DNA of 64,000 nt from a bacterium (GCA_963674695.2 CAXXGI010000002.1:128001-192000); one strand, 5' to 3'; shown: positions 3,885 to 21,126, counted from the stretch's first letter. Notes: generated from the letters alone by a model not told the origin. Numbers and translations are program-made.

Positions 3885-4091
3885 ATGCCAGTTGAAAAAA
3901 CCATAGCTAGTTCGAGTTTGGCGGAAGTTATCGATCGCATCCTTGATAAGGGTATTGTGATCGATGCGTGGGCAAGGCTCTCGTTGGTCGGAATTGAATT
4001 TCTGGCCCTTGAAGCGCGTGCGGTTGTTTCCGGTGTTGAGACCTATCTGAAATATGCAGAAGCGATAGGCCTAACCGCCACTGCTGCATAG
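3885..4091 (+). CDS. gvpA: GvpA, copy 2
   Basis: Same signature; SD AGGAGG. Confidence 0.97.
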
Positions 4092-4167
4092 GTACCACTA
4101 ATTGGTCTTTTTGTTGGGTATCATGGTGATACCTAAAATGGAAGGCCAGTAAACATGGAGGGTTAAG

Positions 4168-5650: not shown

Positions 5651-5728
5651 TATTCAAACACTGTGGGGTGCCCGGTCAATTGGATCGGGTACCTTACGGT
5701 TGTTTTTGACAGTAATGAAGAAGGGTTT

Positions 5729-6082
5729 ATGCCCAGTATTAAAGGCGAAATTCGGTTTCCTTCCCATAGGAAGTATGTAGCACAGATAAATTGCGCGTTC
5801 TGTAAGGGAATAGGAAGAGATCCTTTTGAAACAGTATCCATCTGTCCGGTGTGTCATGGGATGAAGGAGCATTATATTCTCAAACCCTTTTCAACATGCG
5901 CCTATTGTAAGGGAACTGGTATTGAGTTTGGTACACAGAATACATGTCTTTCTTGCCACGGGAGGGGAAAGGTTTCCAATCATAAAGGGAAGCAGAGGAT
6001 TTGTGATGTATGTCGTGGCTCGGGAATGGAGCAGGAGACAAAGTTAACGTGCCATAATTGTCATGGCAGTGGAGTTTTATAA
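5729..6082 (+). CDS. Stand-alone DnaJ-type cysteine-rich zinc finger protein
   Basis: Six CxxCxGxG-type motifs, no J-domain. Confidence 0.8.
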   Translation: MPSIKGEIRFPSHRKYVAQINCAFCKGIGRDPFETVSICPVCHGMKEHYILKPFSTCAYCKGTGIEFGTQNTCLSCHGRGKVSNHKGKQRICDVCRGSGMEQETKLTCHNCHGSGVL

Positions 6083-6139
6083 GTTTATGTTGCCGAGAGT
6101 GTCTGAGTTTTTCTCTGCATTCTCCGCAAGGAGGGTTAT

Positions 6140-7114
6140 ATGGAAAGGGATACAGAATCAATCACCATTATAGAACCTAGGGCAAGCCGCGATTTTGTGG
6201 AAACCCCCTTTGTAAAGGACATTATTAAGAGGTCTATGAATTATATAAAAGCCGGGTTTCCAATTCACTTGAGGGGCATCTCGGGGACGGGCAAGACCAC
6301 GATGGCGCTTCGAATTGCCGAGTTATTGGGTAAACCGCTGGTAATAATTCATGGCGATGAAGAGATGACCACTTCGAATCTGGTCGGGGGAGAAACGGGT
6401 TATCACCTAAGGAGGGTGAGAGATAATTTTATTCATTCCGTCCTCAAGGTGGAGGAGGATGCATCAAAGGAGTGGGTGGATAATCGTCTAACGCTGGCCG
6501 TTGAGAATGGTTATACACTGATTTACGATGAATTTACACGTTCGCGGCCCGAGGCCAACAACGTTTTACTTTCGATCCTTCAGGAAGGAATACTGGATAT
6601 TCCGGGCAAGAGGAACGGGGATTCTTATGTCAAGGTTCATCCGGATTTTTCTGCTATCTTCACATCTAATCCCGAAGAATATGCAGGTGTACATCGCTCA
6701 CAAGATGCACTGCGGGATCGGATGATCACACTTGACCTACAATCTTTCGATGAGAATACCGAAATCGCCATAGCGGCAAAAAAGTCAAGAATGCATCCAA
6801 AGGAAATAGCCAAAATAGTAAAGATAGTGAGGGACCTGAGGGCTTCAGGTCAATATGAGTTTTCTCCCACAGTAAGGGCATGCATTATGATTGCCAAGTC
6901 TATTGCAGTGAATCCGGGCAATGTTCAGGTCGCCTCTCATGACAGCGTCTTTAAGAATATATGCCTTGATATTTTAACTTCTGAAACCTCTCGAATTGGG
7001 AGTTCCTCCACGAGTGCCCGTGTTAAAAATATTGTGTGCGAAGCCATTGATAAACATTGCAGGAATGGCACCGGAAAACCTAGGAGAAAGGTATTGAAGG
7101 GGGTGAGCGAATGA
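6140..7114 (+). CDS. gvpN: Gas vesicle AAA+ ATPase GvpN
   Basis: GISGTGKTT, DNFIHSV, WVDNRLT, YDEFTRSRPEANN, SNPEEYAGVH. Confidence 0.95.
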   Translation: MERDTESITIIEPRASRDFVETPFVKDIIKRSMNYIKAGFPIHLRGISGTGKTTMALRIAELLGKPLVIIHGDEEMTTSNLVGGETGYHLRRVRDNFIHSVLKVEEDASKEWVDNRLTLAVENGYTLIYDEFTRSRPEANNVLLSILQEGILDIPGKRNGDSYVKVHPDFSAIFTSNPEEYAGVHRSQDALRDRMITLDLQSFDENTEIAIAAKKSRMHPKEIAKIVKIVRDLRASGQYEFSPTVRACIMIAKSIAVNPGNVQVASHDSVFKNICLDILTSETSRIGSSSTSARVKNIVCEAIDKHCRNGTGKPRRKVLKGVSE

Positions 7115-7443
7115 AGACTATGATTGATGTCAAACATGTAGGAAGCGTGAAATCCATACGTCACGTTATGACCAAGTCCAAGGGGGGATCGGTAAACCTG
7201 CCTTATCTGAATCTGTATGTCCATCAGATGAATAGATATAAGCTGGATAAGGAAAAACGTGCATTAATTAACCGCCTTGCAGAGATTGAAAAACAACTGA
7301 ATGATATCGATAGCAAATGCATGTCTTTGGGGCCGGAGATCATGACTACTCTAGGTGAAAAACCGAAGAGGCGCAAACGGGGGAAAGACCCCGACGGAAA
7401 TGGCAGGAGACGTGTGGTAAAGAAGTTAAAGGTTAGTTATTGA
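7111..7443 (+). CDS. gvpV: GvpV-like coiled-coil protein
   Basis: YLNLY...KLDKEK...RLAEIEKQL; ATGA-coupled after gvpN. Confidence 0.5.
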   Translation: MKTMIDVKHVGSVKSIRHVMTKSKGGSVNLPYLNLYVHQMNRYKLDKEKRALINRLAEIEKQLNDIDSKCMSLGPEIMTTLGEKPKRRKRGKDPDGNGRRRVVKKLKVSY

Positions 7444-7527
7444 TTCGTATCTCGTGAAGCGTGAAGCGTATCTCGAAATCAGAAATCTATTATTGTGAGA
7501 TACGAGATACGTTTCACGAGATACGAA
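7444..7527. repeat. Heptamer inverted-repeat element 1
   Basis: Four CGTATCT/CGTGAAG units, a 20-nt spacer, then four complementary AGATACG/TTTCACG units, between TGA and AAGGAGG. Confidence 0.9.
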
Positions 7528-7539
7528 AAGGAGGCTCGA

Positions 7540-8085
7540 ATGTTCAAAAAGAAAAAGAAGGATGAAGAACCCTTTGAACTCGATTTTGGAGTCGGCAAAA
7601 TTAACCTAGGAGGGTTACTCAAAGGATTTGGTAAATTAGTTGATTTCGCCGACGAGTTGGAAAAGGCCGGCGGTGAGATGAAGAAAGAGGGCGAATTCAA
7701 GGTCAAGGGGGCAAAGGACCTTAAAGGGGTTTACGGATTTTCCATCCGGACCGGCATAGGAAAAGATGGTACGGAAAGACCCATCGTAGAGCCCTTTGGA
7801 AATATTAAAAAGACGTCCAAGGGTGCGGTGGTGGAAGATACTAGGGAACCCATCGTAGATGTTTTCGATGAGAATGGGAAGTTGCAGATCGTCGCGGAAA
7901 TGCCCGGGGTTTCCGAACAGGAAGTAGAATATACCATTAACGGCGATGTGCTCATTTTAAACAGTATCGGGGAGAAGAAATACAGCAAAGAGATATTGCT
8001 CCCCTATCCGGTTTCGGAAAAAGATGCAGAGAAGAATTATAAAAACGGGATCTTTGAATTAAAACTTAAGAAGAGAGAGCAGTAG
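7540..8085 (+). CDS. Hsp20/alpha-crystallin (GvpH-like, archaeal-type sHsp)
   Basis: GVYGFSIR, EPFGNIK, REPIVDVF, AEMPGV, YKNGIFEL. Confidence 0.88.
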   Translation: MFKKKKKDEEPFELDFGVGKINLGGLLKGFGKLVDFADELEKAGGEMKKEGEFKVKGAKDLKGVYGFSIRTGIGKDGTERPIVEPFGNIKKTSKGAVVEDTREPIVDVFDENGKLQIVAEMPGVSEQEVEYTINGDVLILNSIGEKKYSKEILLPYPVSEKDAEKNYKNGIFELKLKKREQ

Positions 8086-8139
8086 CCCTGCCAGCTTTTC
8101 TAAACCCTTTCCTGTAGGGAAGGCTTTGAGGAACGCTTT

Positions 8140-10308
8140 ATGACTAAAGATAAGAATAAAACCGCAAAGAAAAAATCCGCAATTACACTTCGGGTATCAG
8201 AGGCTCAATCAAAAGATGTTGGTCGAGGTATTGCACGTATGGATCCTGTTGATATGGGGACCATTGGTGCGTCTATCGGTGACGTTATCGAGGTGAAAAG
8301 TAAAGAGCGAGATGCCGTTGCCAAGCTGATGCCTATCTATATGGAGGATCGTGGCAAGAAGATTATTCAAATAGATGGAATCCTCCGTGACAATGCCAAG
8401 GTGGGGATCGATGAAAAGGTGGAAGTGTTAAAAGTTGTTCACCATGAGGCCTTACGAGTGGTCTTAAAGCCGCTACAGGCTGCGTCACTTCGCGGTGACG
8501 AACAATACCTGGGCAAACTCTTTGCCGGCATACCGGTGGTAAAGGGTTCCAAGGTGCGTGCTATTCTCTTTGGTTCAAAGACCCGCGATTTTGAAGTGAT
8601 GGATACATCTCCGTCAGGAGTTGTCTTGGTAAGCCCGCAGACTACCATAGCAATCAAGGGAACAGAGCGTGAAGAGGCAGTAGAGAAAAAACCAGGGGTT
8701 TCTTACGAGGATATTGGGGGCCTGGGTAAGGAGATTCAGCGTGTTCGTGAAATGATAGAGCTTCCCTTGAAATATCCGCAGGTCTTTGACCGGTTGGGAA
8801 TCGATCCGCCCAAAGGTGTTTTGTTATACGGCCCTCCGGGGACAGGAAAGACCCTCATAGCGCGGGCAGTGGCTCATGAGGCTGATGCCAATTTCTTTAC
8901 CGTAAATGGCCCCGAGGTAATACATAAATTTTATGGAGAATCAGAAAAGCATCTTCGTGAATATTTTGAAAAGGCGGCAAATGCAGCCCCTGCTATATTA
9001 TTCATAGATGAGATTGATGCCATTGCGCCCAAAAGGATGGAGGTCCAGGGCGAGGTTGAAAAGAGGGTGGTAGCTACGCTCCTTTCCCAAATGGACGGTT
9101 TAAGAGGTCGTGGAGATATAATTGTAATAGGTGCCACCAACATTCCGGATATACTTGATCCGGCGCTTAGACGCCCCGGACGTTTTGATCGTGAGATTCG
9201 AATAGGAATACCTGATAAAGGTGGCAGAGAACAGATATTGGGCATTCATACGCGCGGCATGCCGCTTGCCAAGGATGTGGATATAAAAAAACTTGCGGAG
9301 ATTACGCATGGTTATGTCGGTGCGGACCTTGAGGCATTGGCCAGAGAGTCAGCCATGAGTTGTCTGCGCAGGTTGTTTGTCGGTTCAGGTGTTTCGCTTG
9401 ATGAAATTCCTCTCGAGAAATTGATGGAGCTTGAAGTTACTATGGATCACTTTATGGAGGCCATGTCAGAGGTAGAGCCTTCTGCGATTCGTGAGGTCTT
9501 TGTAGAGGTTCCTAACGTCACATGGGAAGACGTCGGCGGACTTGACGAGATTAAAAAACGCCTCAAAGAGTCGATTCAGTGGCCACTCGAGTATACCGGA
9601 CTTTTCGAACATGCACATGTCTCCCCGCCAAGAGGTGTCCTTTTGGAAGGCGCACCCGGCACGGGAAAGACACTGATAGCAAAGGCTCTGGCTAATGAGA
9701 GCGGAGTGAATTTTATCTCAATAAAGGGGCCGGAGTTGATGAACAAGTATGTGGGTGAGGCAGAGAAAGGTGTGAGGGAGTTATTCAAAAGGGCCAAGGC
9801 AGCCTCGCCCTGCATTATCTTTTTTGATGAGATTGACTCGATTGTTCCGGAGCGAGGCCATGGTGGTGGCGATTCGGGCGTTACTCAGAGGGTGATCAGC
9901 CAGTTTTTGACGGAGATGGATGGCATTGAGGAACTCAAAGGCGTGATGGTGCTAGGTGCCACAAACCGTAAGGATCTGATCGACCCTGCCCTTCTTCGGA
10001 CGGGCAGATTTGATTTTATCCTTACTGTCGGAATGCCGGATGCCGGAACACGAAGGGAGATATTCGATATTCATACGCGTGGGAAACCTCTGGATTCGAA
10101 TGTAAATATAGATTCGCTTGTTCAAAAGACAGACGGGATGAGCGGTTCAGATATTGAGGCCGTATGCCGCAGGGCTACCATGAATGTCTTGAGATCGTTT
10201 ATCCACGAGCATAAAGAGGCAGCTGATAAGAAAAAGAAATCACTTAAGATCGCAACTGGCGATCTTGAACAAGCATTGGAAGAGGTAAAAAAAGAGAGAG
10301 AAAAGTAA
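8140..10308 (+). CDS. Cdc48/VCP-family double AAA+ ATPase
   Basis: N-domain DVGRGIARMD; GPPGTGKT/IDEID and GAPGTGKT/FDEID; ALRRPGRFDRE. Confidence 0.95.
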   Translation: MTKDKNKTAKKKSAITLRVSEAQSKDVGRGIARMDPVDMGTIGASIGDVIEVKSKERDAVAKLMPIYMEDRGKKIIQIDGILRDNAKVGIDEKVEVLKVVHHEALRVVLKPLQAASLRGDEQYLGKLFAGIPVVKGSKVRAILFGSKTRDFEVMDTSPSGVVLVSPQTTIAIKGTEREEAVEKKPGVSYEDIGGLGKEIQRVREMIELPLKYPQVFDRLGIDPPKGVLLYGPPGTGKTLIARAVAHEADANFFTVNGPEVIHKFYGESEKHLREYFEKAANAAPAILFIDEIDAIAPKRMEVQGEVEKRVVATLLSQMDGLRGRGDIIVIGATNIPDILDPALRRPGRFDREIRIGIPDKGGREQILGIHTRGMPLAKDVDIKKLAEITHGYVGADLEALARESAMSCLRRLFVGSGVSLDEIPLEKLMELEVTMDHFMEAMSEVEPSAIREVFVEVPNVTWEDVGGLDEIKKRLKESIQWPLEYTGLFEHAHVSPPRGVLLEGAPGTGKTLIAKALANESGVNFISIKGPELMNKYVGEAEKGVRELFKRAKAASPCIIFFDEIDSIVPERGHGGGDSGVTQRVISQFLTEMDGIEELKGVMVLGATNRKDLIDPALLRTGRFDFILTVGMPDAGTRREIFDIHTRGKPLDSNVNIDSLVQKTDGMSGSDIEAVCRRATMNVLRSFIHEHKEAADKKKKSLKIATGDLEQALEEVKKEREK

Positions 10309-10319
10309 GGAGAAAAAAC

Positions 10320-11336
10320 ATGTGGTATTTATATGGAATTATTAAAAGCAAGGATGAATTAGATTTCGGCAATATCGGTTTTGCCGATCCTTATGGTGAG
10401 AACTCTTTAGTAAAAACGATTCCGTTTGAGGATATTTCGATGGTGATCTCCGAACTCGATGAGTGGAAACTGGATGAACGGAATAAAAAGTCGTTGATGA
10501 ATAAATTATTGACCCACCAAAAGACGCTCGAAGAGGTCATGAAAAAGGAATTAGTCATTCCTGTCAAGTTTGGCACGGTCATCAACGATAAGGAAGACAT
10601 AAACGTTATCCTTCGCAAGACATACCGTTCTTTTGTCAAGACGCTGGATGGAATGGCTGACAAGTTTGAGGTCAATCTCACAGTCAGTTGGGATGTGCCG
10701 GGAGAGCTCAAAAGGATTGCCGCCGAAGACGAGGAGATCAAGGAGATGAGACGCAAGGCCGAGGAGATCAGGAGCAAGGAACTGATTATGCAGGTGGGGA
10801 TGGTGCTTGAGGATAAACTCGAAGAACGTCGTTTAAAGATAGCCACTGAAATACTCAGATACTTTGTTGATTCATACGGAGAAACCGTGGAGCACGAAAG
10901 GTTGGAAAATACGATGATACTTAACAACTCCTTTCTAATTTCTAATGCACAAGAAAAGTCCTTTTTGGATTTAACATATAAGTTGGATAAAAAATTTGAG
11001 AGCCGATTTAATTTCAAGTGTCTCATGCCCCTCCCCCCTCACAGTTTTCAGACGGTTGTTATTCAAAAGATTACACCAGAACGATTGAGGAATGCGATGG
11101 AGCTGTTTGATGTAAACGAAAACACGACCCTTGAAATTCTCAAGCAAAAGAACCGTGAACTGACACAGAATTTTCATCCGGATGTAGCGAAGGATTGCAA
11201 TCATGAAGAAAAGTTTTCTGAAATTCACCAGACTTATGATTTGCTCAAGGCATTTTTTGAATGGCAGGAGAATCCTTTTCTCAATATTGACAGTGATCGC
11301 TGTTATTTGAGCCGCGTATTGGAGGGCGGTGTCTGA
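10320..11336 (+). CDS. GvpF/L-family protein with C-terminal J-domain
   Basis: YLYGII, IPVKFGTV, PLPPHSF, then LKQKNRELTQNFHPDV...EEKFSEIHQTYDLL (HPD J-domain). Confidence 0.85.
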   Translation: MWYLYGIIKSKDELDFGNIGFADPYGENSLVKTIPFEDISMVISELDEWKLDERNKKSLMNKLLTHQKTLEEVMKKELVIPVKFGTVINDKEDINVILRKTYRSFVKTLDGMADKFEVNLTVSWDVPGELKRIAAEDEEIKEMRRKAEEIRSKELIMQVGMVLEDKLEERRLKIATEILRYFVDSYGETVEHERLENTMILNNSFLISNAQEKSFLDLTYKLDKKFESRFNFKCLMPLPPHSFQTVVIQKITPERLRNAMELFDVNENTTLEILKQKNRELTQNFHPDVAKDCNHEEKFSEIHQTYDLLKAFFEWQENPFLNIDSDRCYLSRVLEGGV

Positions 11337-12079
11337 TGCGTGAGGGAAAGTACATATATTGCATTATAGCTACGGATGAAGCCAAGGAGTTTGGTCCCAT
11401 TGGCCTCGGTGGTCGTGGAGACGAGGTCCATAATGTCTGTTGTGGTGGACTATCCGCAGTTATAAGCAATACGCAGATGACAAAGTACGAACTAAGCCCC
11501 GAGACCCTTCTGGCCCACGAACGCGTGGTTGAAAAAGTAATGAAGGATTACGCTGTTTTGCCGGTCAGATTTTGTACTGTAGCAGAGAGCGTTACTGATA
11601 TCATGCGGTTACTTGAGCTGCGTCATAATGAATTTATTGGCCTCATTAAGGATCTCGAAAATAAAGCCGAGATAGGGGTTAAGGTGTTTTGGAAGGATAT
11701 GGAGATTGTCTTTAACGAAATAGTCAATGAGAACGCCGAGCTAAAAGATAAAGGATTAAAATTTCATCGTTTGGCGGAGGGCGACAGGGTTGAAATAGGT
11801 AAAGAGGTTGCAAAGATATTGGATGATAAAAGGGAGGAGGAGAGTGATATCTGGACATCATCCCTTATTAAGTTATCCAACCAGTATAAAATCCTCAAAG
11901 TTCAGAAAGAGAACATGGTTTTTAATGCCGTATTTTTGGTTGAAAATTTAAGGATGACCAAACTTGACGAAAAGGTGAATGAACTCGCAGGTAGAAAAGG
12001 AAATCGCTATGATGTTAAGTATATAGGGCCAACTCCCCCCTATAATTTTGTCAACCTAGAACTTAAATTAGGGAAGTGA
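11336..12079 (+). CDS. gvpF: GvpF/L-family protein
   Basis: GKYIYCII, LAHERVVE, LPVRFCT, GPTPPYNFV. Confidence 0.9.
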   Translation: MREGKYIYCIIATDEAKEFGPIGLGGRGDEVHNVCCGGLSAVISNTQMTKYELSPETLLAHERVVEKVMKDYAVLPVRFCTVAESVTDIMRLLELRHNEFIGLIKDLENKAEIGVKVFWKDMEIVFNEIVNENAELKDKGLKFHRLAEGDRVEIGKEVAKILDDKREEESDIWTSSLIKLSNQYKILKVQKENMVFNAVFLVENLRMTKLDEKVNELAGRKGNRYDVKYIGPTPPYNFVNLELKLGK

Positions 12080-12088
12080 GGTTTGTTA

Positions 12089-12817
12089 ATGTCTCATCCA
12101 AAATACATATACTGCATAATTCAAACGGCGGATGATTTTGATTTTGGTCCCATCGGTTTGAATGACGAGAGAGTTTACACCATTAAATGTGGAAAATTGG
12201 CCGCAGTAGTTAGCGATTCACAGGAAGAAGAATACAGTATGGCCGATGAGGCCCACGTCAAGGCACATGAAATGGTTTTGGAAAAGACAATGGAGAAATT
12301 TGAGATGTTGCCGATCAGGTTCGGCACCGTGGCTCCCAGCACGCACGAGGTCATGAGCTTCATCAAACAGCATCATCGCGATTTCAAGCACCTCATTAAA
12401 AAACTCAAAGGGAGAGTTGAAATAGAAATAGAAATCTTCTGGAAGGAGATGGATCGGGTCTTTGCCGAAATCGTGGAGGAAAGTAAGAGGTTAAAAAAAC
12501 TGAAATCATCCGGTAAACCGAGGAGCAGAGAAGATCTCATAATGGCGGGCCAACTCGTTGGCGCGAAACTTCGTGCTAAAAAGGAGAAAGAGATACTGAG
12601 ATATCTAAAATATATGAAGGGAACTTATGCGGATTTTCGAATAAATCCAACGGCAAAGGACGATCTTATTATGTATGCCTCATTTCTGGTGGATAAAAGT
12701 GGGCAGAACAAATTTGATGAGGCCGTTGATAAAATGGAGGAAGAGAATCGAAATCGCGTAAGGGTGCGTTATATCGGCCCCGTGCCGCCATACAGTTTTG
12801 CAAGTGTGAGGGTTTAA
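12089..12817 (+). CDS. gvpF: GvpF/L-family protein
   Basis: YIYCII, AHEMVLE, LPIRFGT, GPVPPYSF. Confidence 0.9.
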   Translation: MSHPKYIYCIIQTADDFDFGPIGLNDERVYTIKCGKLAAVVSDSQEEEYSMADEAHVKAHEMVLEKTMEKFEMLPIRFGTVAPSTHEVMSFIKQHHRDFKHLIKKLKGRVEIEIEIFWKEMDRVFAEIVEESKRLKKLKSSGKPRSREDLIMAGQLVGAKLRAKKEKEILRYLKYMKGTYADFRINPTAKDDLIMYASFLVDKSGQNKFDEAVDKMEEENRNRVRVRYIGPVPPYSFASVRV

Positions 12818-12818
12818 A

Positions 12819-13583
12819 ATGAAATCAGGACTATACATGTACTCTGTAATTCGTGTCGATGAAGATTGTTCATTCGGTCCTATTGGCCTTAGCGAGGATT
12901 CGGCAAAGGGGGAAGATGTTTATGTCGTAAGATTCAATGACATAGCCTGCGTGGTCAGCACCTCGGAGGTAAAGGAATGGGAGATAAACCGGGATAATGT
13001 GGTCAGGCATCAGAAGGTCAACGAAGAGGTTATGAAAACCTATACCACGTTGCCTATCAAGTTTTGTACCATCGCTGAAAGCAGCGATCAAATCGTCGAA
13101 AAGTTTCTAAAAAGTCGTTATGATGAGTTGATCGAGAAAATCGATTACTTCTCGGATAAGCGTGAATATGGTGTCAGGGCACACTGGATTGACATGGAAA
13201 AAACATATGAAGAACTTTTGGCTGAAAAGCCTCGTCTCAAGGAGTGGCGTGATCGCCTTGCCAAACTCCCATTTGAGAAGGCGCGAAATGACATGATCAT
13301 CATTGGTGAAGAGGTTCAAAAGGCCTTGAAGAATAAAAAGGAACTTTTCGGAGAAGAACTTTTTGAAGAGTTAAAACCCCTGTCCATAGAGGCAAAGACG
13401 GGAAAGATTATGGGTGATCGCATGGTCTTGAATGGTGCCTTTCTGATTCTTAAGGCGGCACAAAGGGACTTTGATGCCCGTGTAAATGTGCTGTCGGAAA
13501 AACATAAGCACGACCTGAAATTTCGATATGTGGGACCGACCCCGCCGGCAAACTTTATCGAGATCGTGGTCAGTTGGGATTGA
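12819..13583 (+). CDS. gvpF: GvpF/L-family protein
   Basis: YMYSVI, RHQKVNE, LPIKFCT, GPTPPANF. Confidence 0.9.
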   Translation: MKSGLYMYSVIRVDEDCSFGPIGLSEDSAKGEDVYVVRFNDIACVVSTSEVKEWEINRDNVVRHQKVNEEVMKTYTTLPIKFCTIAESSDQIVEKFLKSRYDELIEKIDYFSDKREYGVRAHWIDMEKTYEELLAEKPRLKEWRDRLAKLPFEKARNDMIIIGEEVQKALKNKKELFGEELFEELKPLSIEAKTGKIMGDRMVLNGAFLILKAAQRDFDARVNVLSEKHKHDLKFRYVGPTPPANFIEIVVSWD

Positions 13584-13586
13584 CGT

Positions 13587-13835
13587 ATGGGACTACTCTT
13601 TAACTTATTGGGTGCGCCTCTTGTAGGCCCGATCAAACTCACGCAGTGGGTGGCTGAAAAGATCAAAGAGGTAGCTGATCAACGGTTGGGAGATGAGGAA
13701 AAACTCAAATCGGAGCTTATTGAATTGCAGATGATGAGGGAGATGGATGAGATTGGTCAGGAGGCGTTTGAAAAGAAGGAAAAGGAGATTTTAAATGCAA
13801 TCAATGCAGCAAAAGAAAGAAAAAATAGGGGGTAG
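13587..13835 (+). CDS. gvpG: Gas vesicle protein GvpG
   Basis: LLGAPLVGP...WVAEKI...ELIELQM...EIGQEAFEKKEKEIL. Confidence 0.88.
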   Translation: MGLLFNLLGAPLVGPIKLTQWVAEKIKEVADQRLGDEEKLKSELIELQMMREMDEIGQEAFEKKEKEILNAINAAKERKNRG

Positions 13836-13837
13836 CT

Positions 13838-14101
13838 ATGAATATAAATGAGGCAAAGGGTAAGGTCGCGCAATTTATCTCCAAGGAATTAGGCAAGGAC
13901 ACCCAAGCTATAAAGTTCCTAAAACTTGCCAAAGAAGGTGAGAACTGGAGCTCGAGCGTGGAGATAACGGAGCAGAATGAATACATGAAAAAATTGGGTT
14001 ACCCGCCGATCTTCGATAAAAATGTGTACAAGATCGAACTCGATGATGCCGGCGAGGTAACCAGTTTTTGCAAAAAAGGCGAAGAGGAAGAGGAGTTTTA
14101 A
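13838..14101 (+). CDS. gvpO: GvpO/GvpR-like protein
   Basis: W..SVEITE...YKIELDDAGEVTSF pattern; gene context. Confidence 0.6.
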   Translation: MNINEAKGKVAQFISKELGKDTQAIKFLKLAKEGENWSSSVEITEQNEYMKKLGYPPIFDKNVYKIELDDAGEVTSFCKKGEEEEEF

Positions 14102-14197
14102 CTCGTATCTCGTCGTTCGTATCTCGTATCTCGCAATTCATCAGTGAGACGTTTCTTACGAGATACGCTTCACGAGATACGTTTCACGTAATACGAG
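14102..14197. repeat. Heptamer inverted-repeat element 2
   Basis: CGTATCT CGTCGTT CGTATCT CGTATCT ... AGATACG CTTCACG AGATACG TTTCACG TAATACG between TAA and ATG. Confidence 0.9.
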
Positions 14198-14202
14198 GCA
14201 AA

Positions 14203-16206
14203 ATGGGCGCAGGAGAAACACAAAATACTATTATTGGGGATGCTTCACAGCTTATCTTCGTCGGAGGTAAAGGAGGCGTAGGTAAGACCACTACTGCCGC
14301 TGCCCTCGCCCTTTCGTTAGCTAGAAAATTGCCAGATCACAAAATCGTGATTATTTCCACCGATCCCGCCCATTCCCTTTCTGACAGTTTTGGGATAGCG
14401 ATTGGTGGTGAGAAACCAGTTAGAATAATTACAAAGGGCAACTCAAACCTTTATGCCCAGGAACTCGATGCTGGTTCTCTGCTCAACAAATTCAAGAATG
14501 AAAATGAGGCAGAGATAAAATTACTGGCAGAGCGTGGAACATATTTTGACTCGGATGATATCCAGAGTTTTTTTCGCCTCTCCCTTCCCGGCATTGACGA
14601 AGTGATGTCTGTTTTGGAGATAGGCAGACTGCTTAAGGACGATAATATAAAACATCTGATAGTCGATACTGCCCCAACCGGTCATACCCTGTCGCTGCTT
14701 CGTTTGCCAAAGTTGCTTACAACATGGGTCGATGTTTTTGACCTTTTACAGGAAAAACACCGCATATTGCAGAGGCATTTTTCCGGCAAGGTGGTCAAAG
14801 ATAATGTAGATAATTTTATAGAAGTCATGCGTGGGGATATCAGGGATGTAAGAAATATAATTCAGGACAGGAACAAGTCCCAATTCATCGTTGTAATGCT
14901 GCCGGAGATGCTCAGCCTATTTGAATCAAAGAGGCTTATCGATACGTTAAAGAAACAAGGGATGCCGCTCCATAGTTTGGTATTAAATGGTATTCAAAAT
15001 GCCGGTAGCTGCATTGTTTGTAAGGCGGTTCGTGAAAAGCAGGAAAAAGTGATATCCCTATTAAAAGATAATTTCGCCGGTCTAAGTATTCATCAGGTAC
15101 CGCTCTCCACGCATTCTATTCAGGGCACGCAGGGTCTTGAATGGTTTGCTGCCCATTTAGAGGGCAGAAGCAGCGAAAAGGAAATGTATCTCGCAAATAA
15201 GAGATCACAAGACACCAAGGTACCAAATGCCAGGTATGAGCCACGATTTCATCAGGCATCTTTATCTAAACTACTAAAAGGTTCTCCAAAACTATTCATA
15301 GTCGGTGGCAAGGGCGGTGTAGGTAAGACCACTGTCTCGTGTTGTACATCTATAATGATAGCGGCCAGAGAACCGTCAAAGAAATTTCTGATCTTTTCCA
15401 TCGATCCGGCCCACTCGCTTTCCGATTGTCTAGGGATAAAGATAGAGAGCCGTGAGGCCAAGGTATGTGAGAATCTCTATGCCTCAGAGCTCAATGCCAA
15501 ACTACTTTTAGATGATTTCAAAAAGGAATACACCGACACTATCGATAATCTCTTTGATAAATTCTTTCAAGGTAGCACTTTAAACGCCGGCATGGATTTC
15601 ACTCATGATCGCAAGGTAGTTAAAGCCCTGATAGAGATGACTCCGCCGGGACTGGATGAATTGATGGCCCTGTATCAGGTAATAAATCTGATAAAAGGAG
15701 ACGGAAAGTATGATGCCATCGTCTTCGATACCGCACCCAGCGGCCATCTTTTTCGTTTTCTGGAACTGCCCCATCTGGTGAGAGAATGGCTAAAGGCGAT
15801 ATTCCAACTACTCATAAAATATAAACAGGCCATATCTCTTGGACCGGCTGCAGAAAAGTTGGTTGGGTTGTCTAAGAATATCAGGGAGATCATAGAGATC
15901 ATGCAGGATGAGAGCTTGTGCCGGACCATTGTCGTGTCGACGCCGGAGGCAATGGTGGTCTCGGAGACAAAGAGGTTTGTGAAAAATCTCGAACGCCTTG
16001 GAGTGCCGAGGAACCTCACCATCATCAATATGCTACGTGAAAATACAGAGTGCGATTTTTGCCGCGAAATAAGAAGAGGTCAGGAAGATATGTTGGAGGA
16101 GTTAAAAAAAATGGTATCCAAAGAGTGGATATCTATCCCCTTTCTACCGGAGGATATCAGGGGAATAGATAATTTAAATAAACTGGGCAAGGAGATATAT
16201 CATTAG
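14203..16206 (+). CDS. Tandem two-domain Get3/ArsA-family ATPase
   Basis: Two GGKGGVGKTT, DPAHSLSD, DTAP(T/S)GH sets, each half with a C-terminal CxxC. Confidence 0.92.
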   Translation: MGAGETQNTIIGDASQLIFVGGKGGVGKTTTAAALALSLARKLPDHKIVIISTDPAHSLSDSFGIAIGGEKPVRIITKGNSNLYAQELDAGSLLNKFKNENEAEIKLLAERGTYFDSDDIQSFFRLSLPGIDEVMSVLEIGRLLKDDNIKHLIVDTAPTGHTLSLLRLPKLLTTWVDVFDLLQEKHRILQRHFSGKVVKDNVDNFIEVMRGDIRDVRNIIQDRNKSQFIVVMLPEMLSLFESKRLIDTLKKQGMPLHSLVLNGIQNAGSCIVCKAVREKQEKVISLLKDNFAGLSIHQVPLSTHSIQGTQGLEWFAAHLEGRSSEKEMYLANKRSQDTKVPNARYEPRFHQASLSKLLKGSPKLFIVGGKGGVGKTTVSCCTSIMIAAREPSKKFLIFSIDPAHSLSDCLGIKIESREAKVCENLYASELNAKLLLDDFKKEYTDTIDNLFDKFFQGSTLNAGMDFTHDRKVVKALIEMTPPGLDELMALYQVINLIKGDGKYDAIVFDTAPSGHLFRFLELPHLVREWLKAIFQLLIKYKQAISLGPAAEKLVGLSKNIREIIEIMQDESLCRTIVVSTPEAMVVSETKRFVKNLERLGVPRNLTIINMLRENTECDFCREIRRGQEDMLEELKKMVSKEWISIPFLPEDIRGIDNLNKLGKEIYH

Positions 16207-16220
16207 AAAGGGGGATTTTT

Positions 16221-16580
16221 ATGGCTATAAAACCCGAAATGAAGGAGAGGGAGACGCTCGCTGATGTCCTTGATCGCGTATTGGATAAGGGACTCGTGAT
16301 CAATGCGGACATAGCGGTGTCGCTGGCAGGAACGGAACTCCTGGGTATCAAGATCAGGGCCGCCCTAGCCTCGTTCGAGACAGCGGCTCGCTACGGACTG
16401 CAGTTTCCTTCGGACACCAAACTGGATCTTCCTATATGGAAAGAGGCCAAGGTGGTCAAGGAGGAGTGTCCGCAGTGTGAAAAAAGGGTTGCCCGTCAGG
16501 AACTGCTGGAGAGTGGCTGTCCATGGTGCGGCTTTATGCCTAAACGTGGCATTGAGGCAGCACCTGCTGCGAAAAAATAG
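16221..16580 (+). CDS. gvpJ: GvpJ-like protein with C-terminal zinc ribbon
   Basis: LADVLDRVLDKGLVINAD...ASFETAARYG plus CPQC...CPWC. Confidence 0.85.
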   Translation: MAIKPEMKERETLADVLDRVLDKGLVINADIAVSLAGTELLGIKIRAALASFETAARYGLQFPSDTKLDLPIWKEAKVVKEECPQCEKRVARQELLESGCPWCGFMPKRGIEAAPAAKK

Positions 16581-16639
16581 CGGACAGCGTTGAGCGGATA
16601 GTAATTCATGCAATTCTATACGCTAACAGCTATACACTG
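16578..16639. repeat. Heptamer inverted-repeat element of a second sequence family
   Basis: TAGCGGA CAGCGTT GAGCGGA TAG ... CTA TACGCTA ACAGCTA TACACTG, from stop codon to GGAGG. Confidence 0.7.
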
Positions 16640-16650
16640 GGAGGTTCATT

Positions 16651-16884
16651 ATGCCGGATGCATTTAAAACAGTTAGGGCCATACAAAAAGGTCTGGATGC
16701 TATGTCCAAGAAACTCGAAAACTCCAGAAACGAGAGACTTCGCGAAATAGATAAACGCCTAAAAGAAGTAAATAAGAAGATCTCGGATCAATTTGGTGAA
16801 AGGATGGAAGGCAGTCGAAAGAGGCCTGCGATGCAGCACAAAGAGCCTCTTAGTATGAAAAAGCCTCCACGAAAAAAGAGGTGA
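16651..16884 (+). CDS. Small basic coiled-coil hypothetical protein
   Basis: SD GGAGG; operon context. Confidence 0.65.
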   Translation: MPDAFKTVRAIQKGLDAMSKKLENSRNERLREIDKRLKEVNKKISDQFGERMEGSRKRPAMQHKEPLSMKKPPRKKR

Positions 16885-16887
16885 TGT

Positions 16888-17178
16888 ATGAAAATCGATC
16901 TCGAAGGGGATAATCTTAAGGGGAGTCTCTTGGGGCTGGTCATAGCCATAGTAGAGATACTACACGAAACCCTTGAACATCAAGCCTTGCGGAGGATGGA
17001 TGGTGAGAGTCTTTCAGAGGCGCAGATCGAGCGTTTGGGTAATTCACTTATGAAACTCAAAGAGACGATAGAAGAGTTAAAGGAAGAACAGGGTATTTGT
17101 GAGGCAGTTCATAGCCTTCGCAAACAGTTAGATGGTCTTGTTGATGGATCTATATGGTCAGGGAGGGAAAAGGTATGA
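16888..17178 (+). CDS. gvpK: Gas vesicle protein GvpK
   Basis: LLGLVIAIVEIL...EHQALRRMDGESLSEAQIERLG. Confidence 0.92.
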   Translation: MKIDLEGDNLKGSLLGLVIAIVEILHETLEHQALRRMDGESLSEAQIERLGNSLMKLKETIEELKEEQGICEAVHSLRKQLDGLVDGSIWSGREKV

Positions 17179-17927
17179 GCGAAGGATATTATCTTTATTG
17201 TATTGTTGACGGTTCCGACAACGCTTCGCTAGGGCCGATAGGCGTCGATGATTCTTTTGTCATCACTATTTCAAATAAGGATATCTCTGCGGTCGTCCAT
17301 CATGTCACAGGAGATGTAAAGATCGAAGACACTGAAAAATCATTACAATGGGTGGGGAAGCATCAATCCGTGGTAGAAGAGGCATGGAAAAAATATAAGA
17401 CCGTCCTCCCCTTTGCCTTTGGTACGATTATTAGGGGCGATGAAGGTGAACTCAAAAAATGGATGGAGAAGGAGCATGACCGGTTGGTAAAAAGTATGAT
17501 GAAGGTAAAGGGCAAAGCGGAATATGGTGTGCAGATATTCTGGTTTCCTTCAAGATGCCTCGATCAACTTGTAAATTCCAGCGCAGAACTAAAAGACCTC
17601 AAGAAAAAATCAGAAGGGGAAAATTCCGGTACAGCCTATATGTATAAGAAGAGGTACGAAAAGGCCTTGAAGGACGAAATAGAACATAAGGCCTCGGAAC
17701 TTTTTAGGAGTTTCTTTGAGCGTATTAAAGCGTGTGTGACCGAAATAACGGTGGAAAAGATCAAGACCCTTGAGGAGGACAAACAGATGTTACTCAATGT
17801 GTCCTGTCTGGCCGACGAAGGTCAGGTGGAGGTGTTGGGTAATGTCCTTGAAGATATAGGGGCCGGCGAGGATCATCCGGTGCGATTTACCGGACCATGG
17901 CCCCCCTATTCATTTGTAGGTATGTAA
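17175..17927 (+). CDS. gvpL: GvpL/F-family protein
   Basis: YYLYCIV, HQSVVEEA, LPFAFGT, FTGPWPPYSFV. Confidence 0.9.
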   Translation: MSEGYYLYCIVDGSDNASLGPIGVDDSFVITISNKDISAVVHHVTGDVKIEDTEKSLQWVGKHQSVVEEAWKKYKTVLPFAFGTIIRGDEGELKKWMEKEHDRLVKSMMKVKGKAEYGVQIFWFPSRCLDQLVNSSAELKDLKKKSEGENSGTAYMYKKRYEKALKDEIEHKASELFRSFFERIKACVTEITVEKIKTLEEDKQMLLNVSCLADEGQVEVLGNVLEDIGAGEDHPVRFTGPWPPYSFVGM

Positions 17928-17930
17928 ACT

Positions 17931-18170
17931 ATGAAACCCATTCGAGAAAAAGAGGCGACGCTAGTAGACCTGCTGGATCGCTTGTTGGACAAAGGCCTAG
18001 TGTTAAACGCCGATCTGGTGATCACTATGGGTGATGTCCCCCTGATCGGTATCAACCTGAAAGCGGCCATTGCCGGGATGGAGACCATGCTGCAATATGG
18101 ATTGATGAGAGAGTTTGATAAAGAGGTCAGCGAAGAGCGTGAAGCGTATCTCGTGAAGAGTGAAGCGTAA
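17931..18170 (+). CDS. gvpJ: GvpJ/GvpM/GvpS-like minor GvpA paralogue
   Basis: LVDLLDRLLDKGLVLNAD...AAIAGMETM; C-terminus encoded by the heptamer repeat. Confidence 0.85.
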   Translation: MKPIREKEATLVDLLDRLLDKGLVLNADLVITMGDVPLIGINLKAAIAGMETMLQYGLMREFDKEVSEEREAYLVKSEA

Positions 18171-18233
18171 AATCCGTGAAGCATCGTTCGTGAAGTGCTT
18201 GCGAGATACGAAATGCTCTTCACGAGATACGAG
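18131..18233. repeat. Heptamer inverted-repeat element 3
   Basis: CGTGAAG/CGTATCT array overlapping the gvpJ 3' end, then AGATACG/CTTCACG array before GGAGG. Confidence 0.85.
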
Positions 18234-18245
18234 GATGGAGGCAAT

Positions 18246-18734
18246 ATGATTAAAAGTGGATTGGATTTACATCGTGAACTCCCCTCTCCACAATTGGAGT
18301 CTGGAGAAAAGGTGATAAGAAAATGCACGGGGACACTCGATACAGGACGTGCCGCCTTCTCTACATTTCGCCCATGCAACATCTATTTAACCGACCGGAG
18401 GCTTCTTTTGGCACAGGTGAGAAAGGTCATCAAAGACTTCCGCTATTCTACGATTAGAGAACTTACTGTTGTGAAAAGAAAATGGTTGGCCGGCAAGATG
18501 GTTCCCCAACTGCAAATTACACTAAAGGACGGGAAGGTACACTTTGTGGTTATGAATGAACCGTGGGTGTGGCTTGCGGATATGGCTGGATTTGGAGAGA
18601 TGAACATAAAACAACAAATTGACGAGTCAGCCCCCATTTCTCTACCTGAGAAAATTTCGGATGAGAAAAAATCCCTAAGGGGACAGAAAAAAGGGAAAGT
18701 TCGGCAACATCGAGGCGTGAAACGTCGTTCGTGA
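18246..18734 (+). CDS. Hypothetical protein with PH/GRAM-like domain
   Basis: LESGEKV...IYLTDRRLLL...YSTIREL pattern; SD GGAGG. Confidence 0.6.
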   Translation: MIKSGLDLHRELPSPQLESGEKVIRKCTGTLDTGRAAFSTFRPCNIYLTDRRLLLAQVRKVIKDFRYSTIRELTVVKRKWLAGKMVPQLQITLKDGKVHFVVMNEPWVWLADMAGFGEMNIKQQIDESAPISLPEKISDEKKSLRGQKKGKVRQHRGVKRRS

Positions 18735-18778
18735 AGCGTGAAAAACGAGATACGCTTCACGAAATACGAGATGCGAGG
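18716..18778. repeat. Heptamer inverted-repeat element 4
   Basis: CGTGAAA CGTCGTT CGTGAAG CGT ... ACG AGATACG CTTCACG AAATACG AGATGCG, ending just before the Hsp70 ATG. Confidence 0.85.
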
Positions 18779-18782
18779 AAAA

Positions 18783-20534
18783 ATGGCAGTAATAGGTATA
18801 GATCTCGGCACAACTTATAGCGTTGTGTCCTACATTAAAGATGGTGTGCCAACTATTATACCCAATGCAGAGGGTGAAGATCTCACACCTTCAATAGTCG
18901 GGTTTGATAATTCCGGCCATGTCTTTGTGGGTAAGCTTGCCGAAGAGAGATCTATTCTGGATTCAGAGGGGACCGTTCGCTCAATAAAGAGAAAAATGGG
19001 GAGCGATTTTACGGCGTTGGTCCGCGGACGATACTATACCCCAACCATGATATCATCCTTTATTCTCGGAAAACTTAAAAGGGATGCCGAGAGTTGTCTT
19101 GGTGAGAAAGTTTCAGAGGCGGTTATTACTGTTCCAGCATATTTTAGTGATAAGGCGCGGGAGGCGACGAAAAATTCTGCCGAAATTGCCGGACTTAAAG
19201 TTTTGAGGATCATCAACGAACCTACGGCAGCAACGCTTGCCTATGGCATTTCTCAAAAAGAAGGTGAACAGGTCATGGTCTGGGACCTCGGCGGTGGCAC
19301 CTTCGATGTGTCTATCCTCGAGTTCTCCGGCGGTGTTTACGAGGTTAAATCTACAAGTGGTGATATGAAACTGGGCGGAGACGATTGGCGCGACGCCTTA
19401 TCACGGCACTTCTTAGACCTTCTTTGCAATCAATACAAATCTGATTTTGTAGAGACTCCGGATATGTTGAACCGCATATTGCTCATTAGCGAAAAAGCCA
19501 AGAAGGATCTCACCAATAATGAAGAGACGAATATCAGCTTATCATTTCCCGGCTCTGAGGGTAAGTGGCATGTGGGGCGGATTGTTGTAACTCGTCAGGA
19601 ATTTGAATCACTGTCATCGCATTTATGCGATAGATTGATCCTCCCGGCCAAGCAGGCATTAAAGGACGCAAGGGTGACGACCGGAGACCTCGATAAAGTT
19701 ATTCTTGTAGGCGGGGCAACCCGGATGCCAATGGTCAGGCAGAGAGTAGCCGAATTTGCAGGCAGAGAACCATATATTGATATCGATCCTGATAAAGTAG
19801 TGGCCGTTGGTGCTGCGATACAGGCGGGGATACTTACCGGCGCACTAAAGAAGGCGGTGCTGGTTGATGTAATTCCACTGTCGCTTGGGATAGAGACGCA
19901 GGGGGGAATATTCACCAAATTAATCGAACGCAATACAAAGGTGCCGATATCTAAAGATAGGATATTTACTACGGCAATGGACAATCAGCCCGAGGTGGAA
20001 ATACACGTCTTGCAAGGGGAAAGAGCGCTCGCCGAACACAATGTCTCTCTTGGTAATTTCACGCTTACTGAAATACCGGAGGCATCGAAGGGAATTCCAA
20101 AGATCAGCGTAATCTTCTCGGTCGATATAAACGGCATACTAAATGTCCGTGCCGAAGATGTCTATACCGGAAATGAGAGGGAGATGATTGTGCGGTCGGA
20201 TCGCCTGCAGCAGGATGATATCAATAAGTTGATTAAAGAAGCAGAAAACTACAAGGAGAACGATGATCTCCTTAAGGACACGATAGTCGCCAGGGTTGAA
20301 CTGGAGAGGATTGTGGAAGCGGCCAAACAGTCTATTGATGAGATGAAAATACAATCGTCCGACAAATCTTATAAAGAGGTGGTTTTATTGATTGAGAAGG
20401 CAGAGGACATGTTATCAAACGGCGATTTAATGGGGTTGAAAGAGATATCTCAAAACATAGAGGATACGATGGATTTAATATATGATAGGTGGAAAAACGA
20501 AACAAAAGAGGCCGAGCCAGCAACGGCAGGATGA
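18783..20534 (+). CDS. Hsp70/DnaK-family chaperone (operon-specific paralogue)
   Basis: GIDLGTT, VITVPAYF, INEPTAA, DLGGGTFDVS, VGGATRMP, DVIPLSLGIET. Confidence 0.95.
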   Translation: MAVIGIDLGTTYSVVSYIKDGVPTIIPNAEGEDLTPSIVGFDNSGHVFVGKLAEERSILDSEGTVRSIKRKMGSDFTALVRGRYYTPTMISSFILGKLKRDAESCLGEKVSEAVITVPAYFSDKAREATKNSAEIAGLKVLRIINEPTAATLAYGISQKEGEQVMVWDLGGGTFDVSILEFSGGVYEVKSTSGDMKLGGDDWRDALSRHFLDLLCNQYKSDFVETPDMLNRILLISEKAKKDLTNNEETNISLSFPGSEGKWHVGRIVVTRQEFESLSSHLCDRLILPAKQALKDARVTTGDLDKVILVGGATRMPMVRQRVAEFAGREPYIDIDPDKVVAVGAAIQAGILTGALKKAVLVDVIPLSLGIETQGGIFTKLIERNTKVPISKDRIFTTAMDNQPEVEIHVLQGERALAEHNVSLGNFTLTEIPEASKGIPKISVIFSVDINGILNVRAEDVYTGNEREMIVRSDRLQQDDINKLIKEAENYKENDDLLKDTIVARVELERIVEAAKQSIDEMKIQSSDKSYKEVVLLIEKAEDMLSNGDLMGLKEISQNIEDTMDLIYDRWKNETKEAEPATAG

Positions 20535-20544
20535 AAAAAGCCTG

Positions 20545-21126
20545 ATGGAATCGTCTGCCGGCATCCTGATGTCAGAGGAGAGCAGATGGTGCATGGGAAA
20601 GTGTAATGCAGCCCAGCGTGCCATTGACTTTTTTTCAGATCATCAGGTTATGTGGTCATGTCCATATAAAGATATTGCAAGCCTGAATATGGAGGAACGA
20701 CCATTCGCATTTGGCACCAAGAAGGCGTTGAGGGTAGAGTATCGGTGTAATGGTCAATTAAAGCTGGTCTGGCTTGTCCTAGTTGAATATCAAAAACTGG
20801 AGAAGATTATCAGGGTTCGTGCCTTCCCATGCGCATTATCAGAGGAAGACATATGCTGCGTGGCGGGGGGCGTTGATAACGTCAGCGAACAGTTTTTATG
20901 GTATCTCTGGAAAAAGCAGCATGCCACAATCGATGAACTGACCGCACTCGGCATCATTGACGATCCTGAGGAGGTATTGAAGAAGATCAAAGGGGTCATA
21001 AATCCAGTCGCCGAAGAGATACTGGGATATCCTTTGTTTGTTTTCAGGAATACAAGATTTGATCCGGCGACCAACAGGACATTTGAAAACTGCTGGTGCA
21101 TATTTGATCCGATGAGTGACTTATGA
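20545..21126 (+). CDS. Hypothetical protein (PH-like N-terminus, winged-HTH-like C-terminus); start uncertain
   Basis: [15 protein letters not shown]...[10 protein letters not shown]; fills the gap between hsp70 and alaC. Confidence 0.6.

Follow-up and report, generated by a model that had tools for sequence, protein, structure and literature searches.

What does a J-domain do on a gas vesicle protein, in a gas vesicle (gvp) gene cluster that also encodes an Hsp70? The question is raised by a bacterial DNA stretch of 64,000 nucleotides (GCA_963674695.2 CAXXGI010000002.1:128001-192000, hereafter the window), for which a sequence-only reading had described one gvp operon with an Hsp70 paralogue, a GvpF/L protein ending in a J-domain, a separate DnaJ-type zinc finger, Hsp20, Cdc48, GvpN and a tandem Get3-like ATPase, and had proposed a dedicated Hsp70 with a split Hsp40 in an organelle-specific line of assembly and disassembly. 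Open reading frame (ORF) calls, Pfam and NCBIfam recovered all seven components, all on the + strand, at the coordinates listed below. The answer that we consider fairly probable is that the GvpF protein fused to a J-domain (hereafter GvpF-J) acts as a client-specific class C J-protein handing GvpA-family proteins to Hsp70. The core of the earlier interpretation is right, that is, a J-protein with a GvpF client-binding part and a private Hsp70 in the window genome; its terms "dedicated" and "split Hsp40" and its disassembly role are too strong. The two genes on which the question turns are as follows.

10320..11336, + strand: GvpF-type domain (residues 1-245) fused to a J-domain (about residues 250-315) and a C-terminal strand (PF06386, 160.9 bits; PF00226, 26.1 bits)
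18738..20534, + strand: Hsp70 paralogue (PF00012, 596.8 bits), with its likely start at the Met at 18771 or 18783

The N-terminal part of GvpF-J belongs to the GvpF/GvpL family (160.9 bits vs. a PF06386 cut-off of 23.6) and has the GvpF fold; it is nearer to GvpF than to GvpL (90 vs. 47 bits with the NCBIfam models), the true GvpL of the cluster being a fifth GvpF/L paralogue (17154-17927). A profile of 56 fusion proteins, which were picked among HPD-bearing sequences and in which the invariance of HPD is therefore by construction, was compared with PDB sequences. Over positions 2-245 it matched both solved GvpF structures (6L5D, E 2e-38; 4QSG, E 2e-33), and over positions 260-316 dozens of solved J-domains, including E. 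coli DnaJ (best E 1.7e-14). The AlphaFold model built from the 56-fusion alignment (pLDDT 93.9, pTM 0.84) contains three helices (253-262, 271-285, and 293-312) around the HPD motif, which occupies residues 286-288 between the second and third of them, followed by a final strand (328-335); helices I-III are seen and a fourth helix is not evident. Foldseek returned 6l5d (E 3e-14) and 4qsg as top fold matches, and J-domains for the C-terminal part with a root-mean-square deviation of 1.4 A over 51 columns and a probability of 1.00.

Because both the 56-fusion profile and the AlphaFold model match J-domains, the similarity is not a chance match, and HPD is kept in all 12 sequences compared (the window and eleven database homologues), down to 26% identity. 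Family profile, predicted fold and HPD conservation together bear out the claim that this C-terminus is a real J-domain under selection, and the position of HPD, the fold and the profile all agree with a class C J-domain protein. The other four GvpF/L paralogues of the window gave no DnaJ match in Pfam. An apparent Hsp70-GvpF-J fusion in another locus (L027, a 1002-codon open frame) was rejected, its junction being a run of masked bases.

The fusion is spread widely. A genome scan yielded 192 relatives among 250 candidate stretches, of which 80 loci were kept; they were picked by likeness to the window fusion and are mutually related, so that counts among them are not independent. A J-profile match lies on a GvpF ORF in all 80 and HPD is present in 75. 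By their record labels these loci represent 16 named phyla (50 loci are Chloroflexota and six lack a phylum label), including cultured Ktedonobacter and Oscillochloris strains, and HPD is kept at 23-30% identity across the 16 named phyla. A search of a library holding 1.84 billion cluster representatives gave 1314 proteins with matches to the fusion profile at E <= 1e-30, and the full fusion, spanning the profile past position 312, was found in 146 of the best 150 representatives of 50%-identity clusters. The gene immediately downstream of the fusion is another GvpF in 65 of the 80 loci, and the gene immediately upstream is most commonly Cdc48 (33/80), with Hsp70 and the zinc finger at eight loci each; no second J-domain ORF was found in the 80 loci.

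The cluster Hsp70 is a member of the Hsp70 superfamily, with nucleotide- and substrate-binding domains (PF00012), and it retains the motifs GIDLGTT, DLGGGTFD, NEPTAA and VGGATRMP together with the linker DVIPLSLG. The Arg of RIINEPTAA, equivalent to R167 in E. coli DnaK, where it contacts the J-domain, is intact. It falls below both DnaK equivalog cut-offs (NF001413, 639.4 vs. 648; TIGR02350, 622 vs. 822.55) and below that of HscA (532.3 vs. 708.55 bits), and in the genome search it reached 529.6 + 67.5 bits on PF00012, compared with 882.5 bits for the housekeeping DnaK, which is encoded on another contig (C3:597734-599515). The separate DnaK, the scores under both cut-offs and the tree described below establish, as had been supposed, that the Hsp70 is a paralogue and not the housekeeping DnaK. 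The ATPase-domain insert of the host DnaK and of some gvp-linked Hsp70s, presumably the known separator of Gram-negative-type from Gram-positive-type DnaK, is lacking in the cluster Hsp70. Its apparent "deletion" in the ATPase domain (Pfam positions 74-104 unmatched) was rejected as a special feature, the protein being colinear with Mycobacterium DnaK and Geobacillus DnaK (2v7y, residues 17-518). Its nearest metagenome relative shares 57% identity and retains the gene order GvpL, GvpM, P0004, Hsp70, P0005. A genome-wide search found four other J-domain genes; GrpE is absent from the window, as the sequence-only reading had noted, the sole GrpE match of the genome (C2:606027-606506) lying about 414 kb past the window end, and no GrpE-like ORF was found in 125 loci.

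The origin of the gvp-linked Hsp70s was approached with a quick IQ-TREE analysis of 39 Hsp70s, in which the 24 gvp-linked copies form two groups. Eleven divergent Hsp70s from several phyla, including that of the window, stand outside the DnaK clade, and thirteen Chloroflexota Hsp70s are nested among Chloroflexota DnaKs; a single clade of all 24 costs 28 log-likelihood units and is rejected by the approximately unbiased (AU) test (p-AU 0.023). Two recruitments of Hsp70 are therefore likely on the basis of this quick tree and are not settled. All but two of the 39 Hsp70s retain the Arg of RIINEPTAA. The exceptions, L080 with Lys and L088 with Gly, are the two loci that combine a sequenced Hsp70 with a GvpF J-like domain lacking HPD; the L088 Hsp70 has further degenerate motifs. 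Such co-variation would be expected if the J-domain of the fusion and the cluster Hsp70 form one interface. The fusion-Hsp70 pair of this Chloroflexota lineage (L080 and L088) may be decaying or re-purposed.

These two genes belong to a complete gvp cluster at 3885-21126, in which the ORF calls place all genes on the + strand, separated by gaps of a few bases or by short overlaps. The range given earlier, 5729-20534, agrees exactly with the start of the zinc-finger gene and the stop of the Hsp70 gene and is too narrow for the cluster, which extends from gvpA at 3885 to the end of a conserved accessory gene at 21126. Its other features are listed here.

3885..4091, + strand: gvpA, the major shell protein (PF00741, 56.2 bits; NF006874 GvpA, 122.9 bits, cut-off 100)
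4519-5076 and 5063-5650, + strand: two coiled-coil genes, of which the second weakly resembles GvpC (PF01304, E 0.0051, below cut-off)
5660..5700, + strand: hairpin with an 18-bp stem and then a T run, between the GvpC-like and zinc-finger genes; candidate attenuator or terminator from a consensus scan
5729..6082, + strand: DnaJ-type zinc-finger-only protein (PF00684, 44.5 bits, cut-off 32.7)
6140..7114, + strand: GvpN AAA+ ATPase (TIGR02640, 345.6 bits, cut-off 266.8)
7111..7443, + strand: protein of 110 amino acids (aa) with no family above cut-off in Pfam and NCBIfam; homologue in L011
7495..8085, + strand: Hsp20/alpha-crystallin protein in a GvpH-like position (NF041800 archaeal Hsp20, E 6.4e-37, 126.7 bits; the equivalog cut-off of 140 is not reached)
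8140..10308, + strand: Cdc48-type double-ring AAA+ ATPase (TIGR01243, 916.6 bits, cut-off 802.65), with CDC48_N, CDC48_2 and two AAA domains
11336..13583, + strand: three more GvpF-type paralogues without J-domain (PF06386, 183-193 bits), nearer to the GvpF than the GvpL model
13587-13835, + strand: GvpG (PF05120, 64.3 bits)
13838-14101, + strand: weakly GvpO-like 87-aa protein (PF05800, E 0.0019, below cut-off)
14068..16206, + strand: tandem two-half Get3/TRC40/ArsA-family ATPase (PF02374, 425 bits in 2 stretches; TIGR00345, 420.1 bits, cut-off 135)
16221-16580, + strand: GvpJ-like protein (Pfam, NCBIfam)
16651-16884, + strand: 77-aa protein
16888-17178, + strand: GvpK (Pfam, NCBIfam)
17154-17927, + strand: GvpL (NF045778, 208.6 bits, cut-off 200)
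17931-18170, + strand: GvpM-like protein (NF046091, 92.2 bits, below 109)
18195..18734, + strand: PH-like-domain protein P0004, without Pfam or NCBIfam match; real start probably the Met at 18246
20482..21126, + strand: PH-like and winged-helix protein P0005 (AlphaFold pLDDT 91.5; PH-domain fold matches)

Both coiled-coil genes are conserved in related loci (tblastn). The consensus scan found 21 terminator-like sites compared with 17.8 in shuffles, a total that is not above the shuffles; the hairpin may be an attenuator dividing highly expressed structural genes from accessory genes. With an N-domain, two AAA rings and a score above the family cut-off, the Cdc48-type protein belongs to the Cdc48/p97/VAT family. 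Similarly, the two fused halves and the score above the family cut-off place the tandem ATPase in the Get3/TRC40/ArsA family, and the equivalog of the ArsA arsenic pump is not reached (186.5 vs. 650). The Hsp20 is weak in Pfam (18.1 bits vs. a cut-off of 20.8).

Do these components belong together? Within 10 kb of the fusion gene, they were found in the 80 loci, and in the 27 of them with both flanks complete, as follows.

Cdc48: 56/80 loci; 22/27 complete-flank loci
Hsp20: 57/80 loci; 24/27 complete-flank loci
GvpN: 55/80 loci; 23/27 complete-flank loci
Zinc finger: 44/80 loci; 17/27 complete-flank loci
ArsA: 26/80 loci; 10/27 complete-flank loci
Hsp70: 25/80 loci; 15/27 complete-flank loci
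P0005 family: 14/80 loci; 9/27 complete-flank loci

An unbiased control was drawn from 401 Chloroflexota genomes, GvpK being found in 46 (a tally that includes G145, which was not used); 45 loci were taken, and the fusion occurs in 12 of the 42 with at least one GvpF. The comparison was limited to loci of at least 12 kb, 12 of them fusion-positive and 21 fusion-negative.

Cdc48: fusion-positive 9/12; fusion-negative 5/21; p 0.009
Zinc finger: fusion-positive 3/12; fusion-negative 0/21; p 0.04
Hsp70: fusion-positive 1/12; fusion-negative 0/21; p 0.36

For proving an association between Hsp70 and the fusion this control sample is too small. In the small phylum to which the window belongs, 93 genomes were searched, and GvpK was found in 10 of them, with eight evaluable clusters. 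Cdc48 followed by GvpF-J is present in all eight; Hsp70 is present in the clusters of the window, G031, G036 and G051, and the G091 cluster ends too early for Hsp70 to be scored. No gvp locus was clearly of a kind with Hsp70 and no fusion, L193 and L195 carrying an Hsp70 on contigs whose ends cut the side where the fusion would lie. Six Chloroflexota clusters (L163, L165, L166, L168, L170, and L190) carry Cdc48, Hsp20 and GvpN, but none of their GvpF proteins has a J-domain and Hsp70 is absent; a type of cluster with Cdc48 therefore exists without the Hsp70 arm. The expected co-occurrence of the components holds far beyond the window genome, but Hsp70 is optional and the accessory genes vary by locus.

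Fifteen genomes of these loci were also searched for Hsp70. Each of G001-G005 encodes a DnaK (855-896 bits) and a lower-scoring copy (617-790 bits) on the gvp contig, and G009 has a second Hsp70 about 1 kb past the examined flank of its gvp locus. Four assemblies, the completeness of which is not reported (G008, G010, G105, and G106), contain the fusion and a single full-length Hsp70, so the only partner open to the J-domain there is the housekeeping DnaK. In cultured Ktedonobacter (L046, L069) and in Oscillochloris sp. ZM17-4 (L086), the cluster encodes Cdc48 and GvpF-J and lacks an Hsp70. A private Hsp70 is accordingly upheld for the window genome but does not generalize, given its presence in 15 of 27 complete-flank loci, in one of 12 fusion-positive loci of the unbiased sample, and the four single-Hsp70 assemblies.

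From the observed domain identities, conservation, paralogy and co-occurrence, we infer all of the binding and functional steps of the following scheme. The GvpF domain of GvpF-J would bind hydrophobic GvpA-family shell proteins, and the rigidly attached J-domain would trigger ATP hydrolysis by Hsp70; the shell protein would be captured, kept soluble and released under control for insertion into the growing vesicle. The partner in the window genome would most likely be the cluster Hsp70 paralogue, and in genomes with the fusion but a single Hsp70 it would be the housekeeping DnaK. The fusion may represent the core of a modular chaperone set in gvp clusters, nearly always accompanied by Cdc48 and Hsp20, with Hsp70, one to six DnaJ-like zinc-finger proteins, the Get3/ArsA ATPase and the PH-like/winged-helix protein as variable parts.

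The client-binding step agrees with published work: GvpF is reported as the only GvpA partner (PMC7688916) and as the shell protein's primary partner and likely chaperone (PMC11445434), consistent with the earlier statement that GvpF binds GvpA. Gas vesicle accessory proteins are called "possible chaperones" whose mechanism is not known (PMC6107691, PMC11445434), and heterologous expression of gas vesicles is described as limited by shell-protein proteotoxicity (PMC12848028). Residues 1-245 of GvpF-J have a clear GvpF fold, to which the protein adds a C-terminal J-domain; the solved GvpF chains (6L5D and 4QSG; 250 and 253 residues) align with no more of the fusion profile than its GvpF part. 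We found no description of the GvpF-J/Hsp70 arrangement in the open-access full-text literature and bioRxiv, in line with the previous remark that it is uncharacterised. One automatic name of the Joint Genome Institute (JGI) reads "gas vesicle protein GvpL/GvpF/DnaJ-like protein"; because it holds both terms, the pair is visible to annotation pipelines. Specialised J-protein/Hsp70 pairs are known, and the GvpF-J version is widespread and, apparently, has not been described in print.

Among such pairs, HscB-HscA-IscU is the closest known parallel. There, too, the non-J part of the J-protein binds a dedicated client, the Hsp70 is a specialised paralogue, and both are encoded in the operon of the client, with no GrpE there; unlike HscB, GvpF-J would bind its client through a GvpF fold, there is no homology beyond the J-domain and Hsp70, and the private Hsp70 is optional. 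The earlier analogy with auxilin/GAK and Hsc70 on clathrin, in which a C-terminal J-domain is combined with a module for binding a self-assembling coat protein and recruits Hsp70 to the assembly, stands as one possible reading and yields to HscB as the nearer parallel. Auxilin shares no homology beyond the J-domain and drives disassembly, whereas the role published for GvpF lies in early assembly.

Several observations, besides the relatedness of the 80 loci, weigh against the proposal that GvpF-J hands shell proteins to Hsp70. The J-domain of the window fusion falls just under the Pfam cut-off (PF00226, E 9.1e-6, cut-off 27.8 bits), while the same stretch reached 30.3 bits, over the cut-off, in a six-frame search of the whole genome. 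HPD is lacking in five of the 80 fusions (HKD in L053; a degenerate loop in L071, L080, L088, and L089), and L080 and L088 retain an Hsp70 despite this loss. Because L080 and L088 form sister branches, the co-variation of HPD and Arg concerns one lineage and the two losses are probably one event. Hsp70 is missing from 12 of the 27 complete-flank fusion loci and, with flanks well covered, from three of the seven evaluable clusters of the window's phylum (G070, G086, and G073), and its link to the fusion in the unbiased sample is not significant. When the long row L122 is left out of the tree, the window Hsp70 and 10 other gvp-linked copies fall on one side of a branch marked 100*, and the starred branches alone then force no more than one origin. 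Finally, the gvp clusters studied in Anabaena, Halobacterium, Priestia megaterium and Serratia support vesicle formation and are not known to contain such a module, and the chaperone module is therefore not universally required.

Could the same machinery act at the other end of the vesicle's life instead of in assembly? Hsp20, J/Hsp70 and Cdc48 might form a disaggregase-like triad that extracts GvpA from collapsed or misassembled vesicles, in an auxilin- or ClpB-DnaK-like manner, with GvpF-J marking the substrate, a role that we regard as rather unlikely. A small heat shock protein, Hsp70/J and an AAA+ unfoldase constitute the canonical bacterial disaggregation triad, and collapsed gas vesicles are not known to re-inflate, both of which would favour such a role. 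So would the finding that no other gene lies immediately upstream of the fusion as often as Cdc48, the frequency of Cdc48 and Hsp20 in complete-flank loci, and the fact that Cdc48 goes with the fusion in the unbiased sample. However, the six Chloroflexota clusters with Cdc48 and no J/Hsp70 indicate that Cdc48 is independent of that arm, and the role published for GvpF is early binding of new GvpA (PMC7688916, PMC11445434). Assembly and recycling could both be true, and nothing separates them.

A second alternative, which we hold to be improbable, changes the partner: the J-domain would recruit the housekeeping DnaK in the window genome too, and the cluster Hsp70 would serve some other purpose, perhaps acting with the zinc-finger and PH-like proteins as a holdase for other Gvp proteins. 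The distribution of the fusion is far wider than that of the cluster Hsp70, the fusion occurs with one full-length Hsp70 in the four assemblies named above, and L080 and L088 keep their Hsp70 without HPD. Moreover, the cluster Hsp70 tracks P0005 (present in 12/25 Hsp70-positive vs. 2/55 Hsp70-negative loci) and the zinc finger (20/25 vs. 24/55, p 0.003, relatedness not corrected). On the other side, the lack of another J-domain ORF in the 80 loci would leave the cluster Hsp70 without a local J partner, the Hsp70 gene lies immediately upstream of the fusion gene in eight loci, and HPD and the Arg of RIINEPTAA were lost together in one lineage. That the J-domain and the chaperone genes are chance neighbours or a decaying fusion without a specific gas vesicle role, as the loss of HPD in five of 80 fusions and the differing accessory genes might suggest, is very improbable, given that HPD is retained across 16 named phyla at such low identity, that the full fusion occurs in no fewer than 146 distinct 50%-identity clusters, that the genes are tightly packed on one strand, and that the tree and AU test suggest repeated Hsp70 recruitment.

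Returning to the proposed GvpF-J/Hsp70 pair, does the zinc-finger protein supply the missing half of its J-protein? The zinc finger of DnaJ has four CXXCXGXG motifs, whereas the protein encoded at 5729-6082 consists of six such motifs and nothing else; across 43 homologues its Cys and Gly columns show little or no variation. Up to six copies of the gene were counted in one locus (L025), and it lies beside the fusion gene, beside gvpN, or about 2 kb downstream, adjacency to gvpN being as frequent as adjacency to the fusion. GvpF-J shares with class A DnaJ the J-domain with HPD but is not a member of that class, having no G/F region, zinc finger or C-terminal client-binding domains; the CXXCXGXG repeat (PF00684) is found in a separate and often multi-copy gene. 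The idea of a split Hsp40 is thus not supported, given six motifs instead of four, up to six copies and equally frequent adjacency to gvpN. A complex prediction for GvpF-J and the zinc-finger protein, run without controls, scored 0.00 (mark 0.32) and speaks neither for nor against. These features are compatible with a chaperone role and do not establish the missing half of DnaJ. A BSD2-like assembly chaperone that stands alone would serve, by analogy, at least equally well as a model: the plastid BSD2-type proteins are likewise small, consist of CXXCXGXG repeats without a J-domain and, in the case of BSD2, are tied to the assembly of one abundant oligomeric client, although their resemblance to the window protein goes no further than domain type. 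Single gvp loci of Anaerolineales (L022, L024, L025, L032 and L041) carry tandem arrays of four to six paralogues of this six-motif protein.

The remaining accessory genes next to the Hsp70 encode a PH-like family. P0005 was considered as a GrpE-like exchange factor, and this was rejected, its model being a PH-like barrel with a winged helix whose fold matches are PH domains; a search of the ESM Atlas with P0005 gave no usable match. P0004 is tied to the N-terminal domain of P0005 (jackhmmer) and has the same position in L011, L012 and L197, and Chloroflexota homologues of P0005 have an added C-terminal alpha-crystallin (Hsp20) domain. The PH-like module is also repeated in proteins of about 370 residues, some with a GvpA-like N-terminus fused; gvp-associated members of the family include L013:15939-17012, L014:9653-10885 and L193:7621-8709.

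Outside the gvp cluster, two ParA/MinD-type ATPases (88-1050 and 1948-2727, + strand) lie just upstream of gvpA. The region 22970-37968 is a probable defence island, which includes a helix-turn-helix protein, a 797-aa protein and the following genes.

23418-26870: SNF2/ResIII helicase with a NOV_C domain
26863-29799: DUF1156 protein
30367-33339: DUF499 ATPase
37225-37968, - strand: PD-(D/E)XK nuclease

It is followed at 39115-60651 by a myovirus-like prophage or contractile-tail element, with genes for an IrrE-like M78 peptidase, a large terminase, a sigma-70 region 2 protein, baseplate J, a gp5/VgrG-like spike, a tape-measure-like protein, a T4-type baseplate protein and a sheath.

A J-domain hard-wired to GvpF gives a testable mechanistic pointer, which predicts that Hsp70 acts on GvpA-family proteins. 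GvpF would add a new client-binding module to the specialised J-proteins, and Hsp70 paralogues may have been recruited repeatedly to one organelle. Supplying GvpF-J, the matched Hsp70, the zinc-finger chaperones and Cdc48 might improve vesicle production in engineered hosts. A more far-reaching possibility, which we regard as doubtful at present, is that the gvp clusters of many uncultured bacteria encode a complete, organelle-private proteostasis machine, composed of a GvpF-J adaptor, an Hsp70 without its own GrpE, for which P0005 may be a new cofactor, together with Hsp20, a Cdc48 unfoldase, a Get3-like holdase and BSD2-like zinc-finger chaperones. This machine would supply growing vesicles with GvpA and also remove GvpA from vesicles that have collapsed. 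If true, such a machine would explain how a very hydrophobic, amyloid-prone shell protein stays assembly-competent and is recycled.

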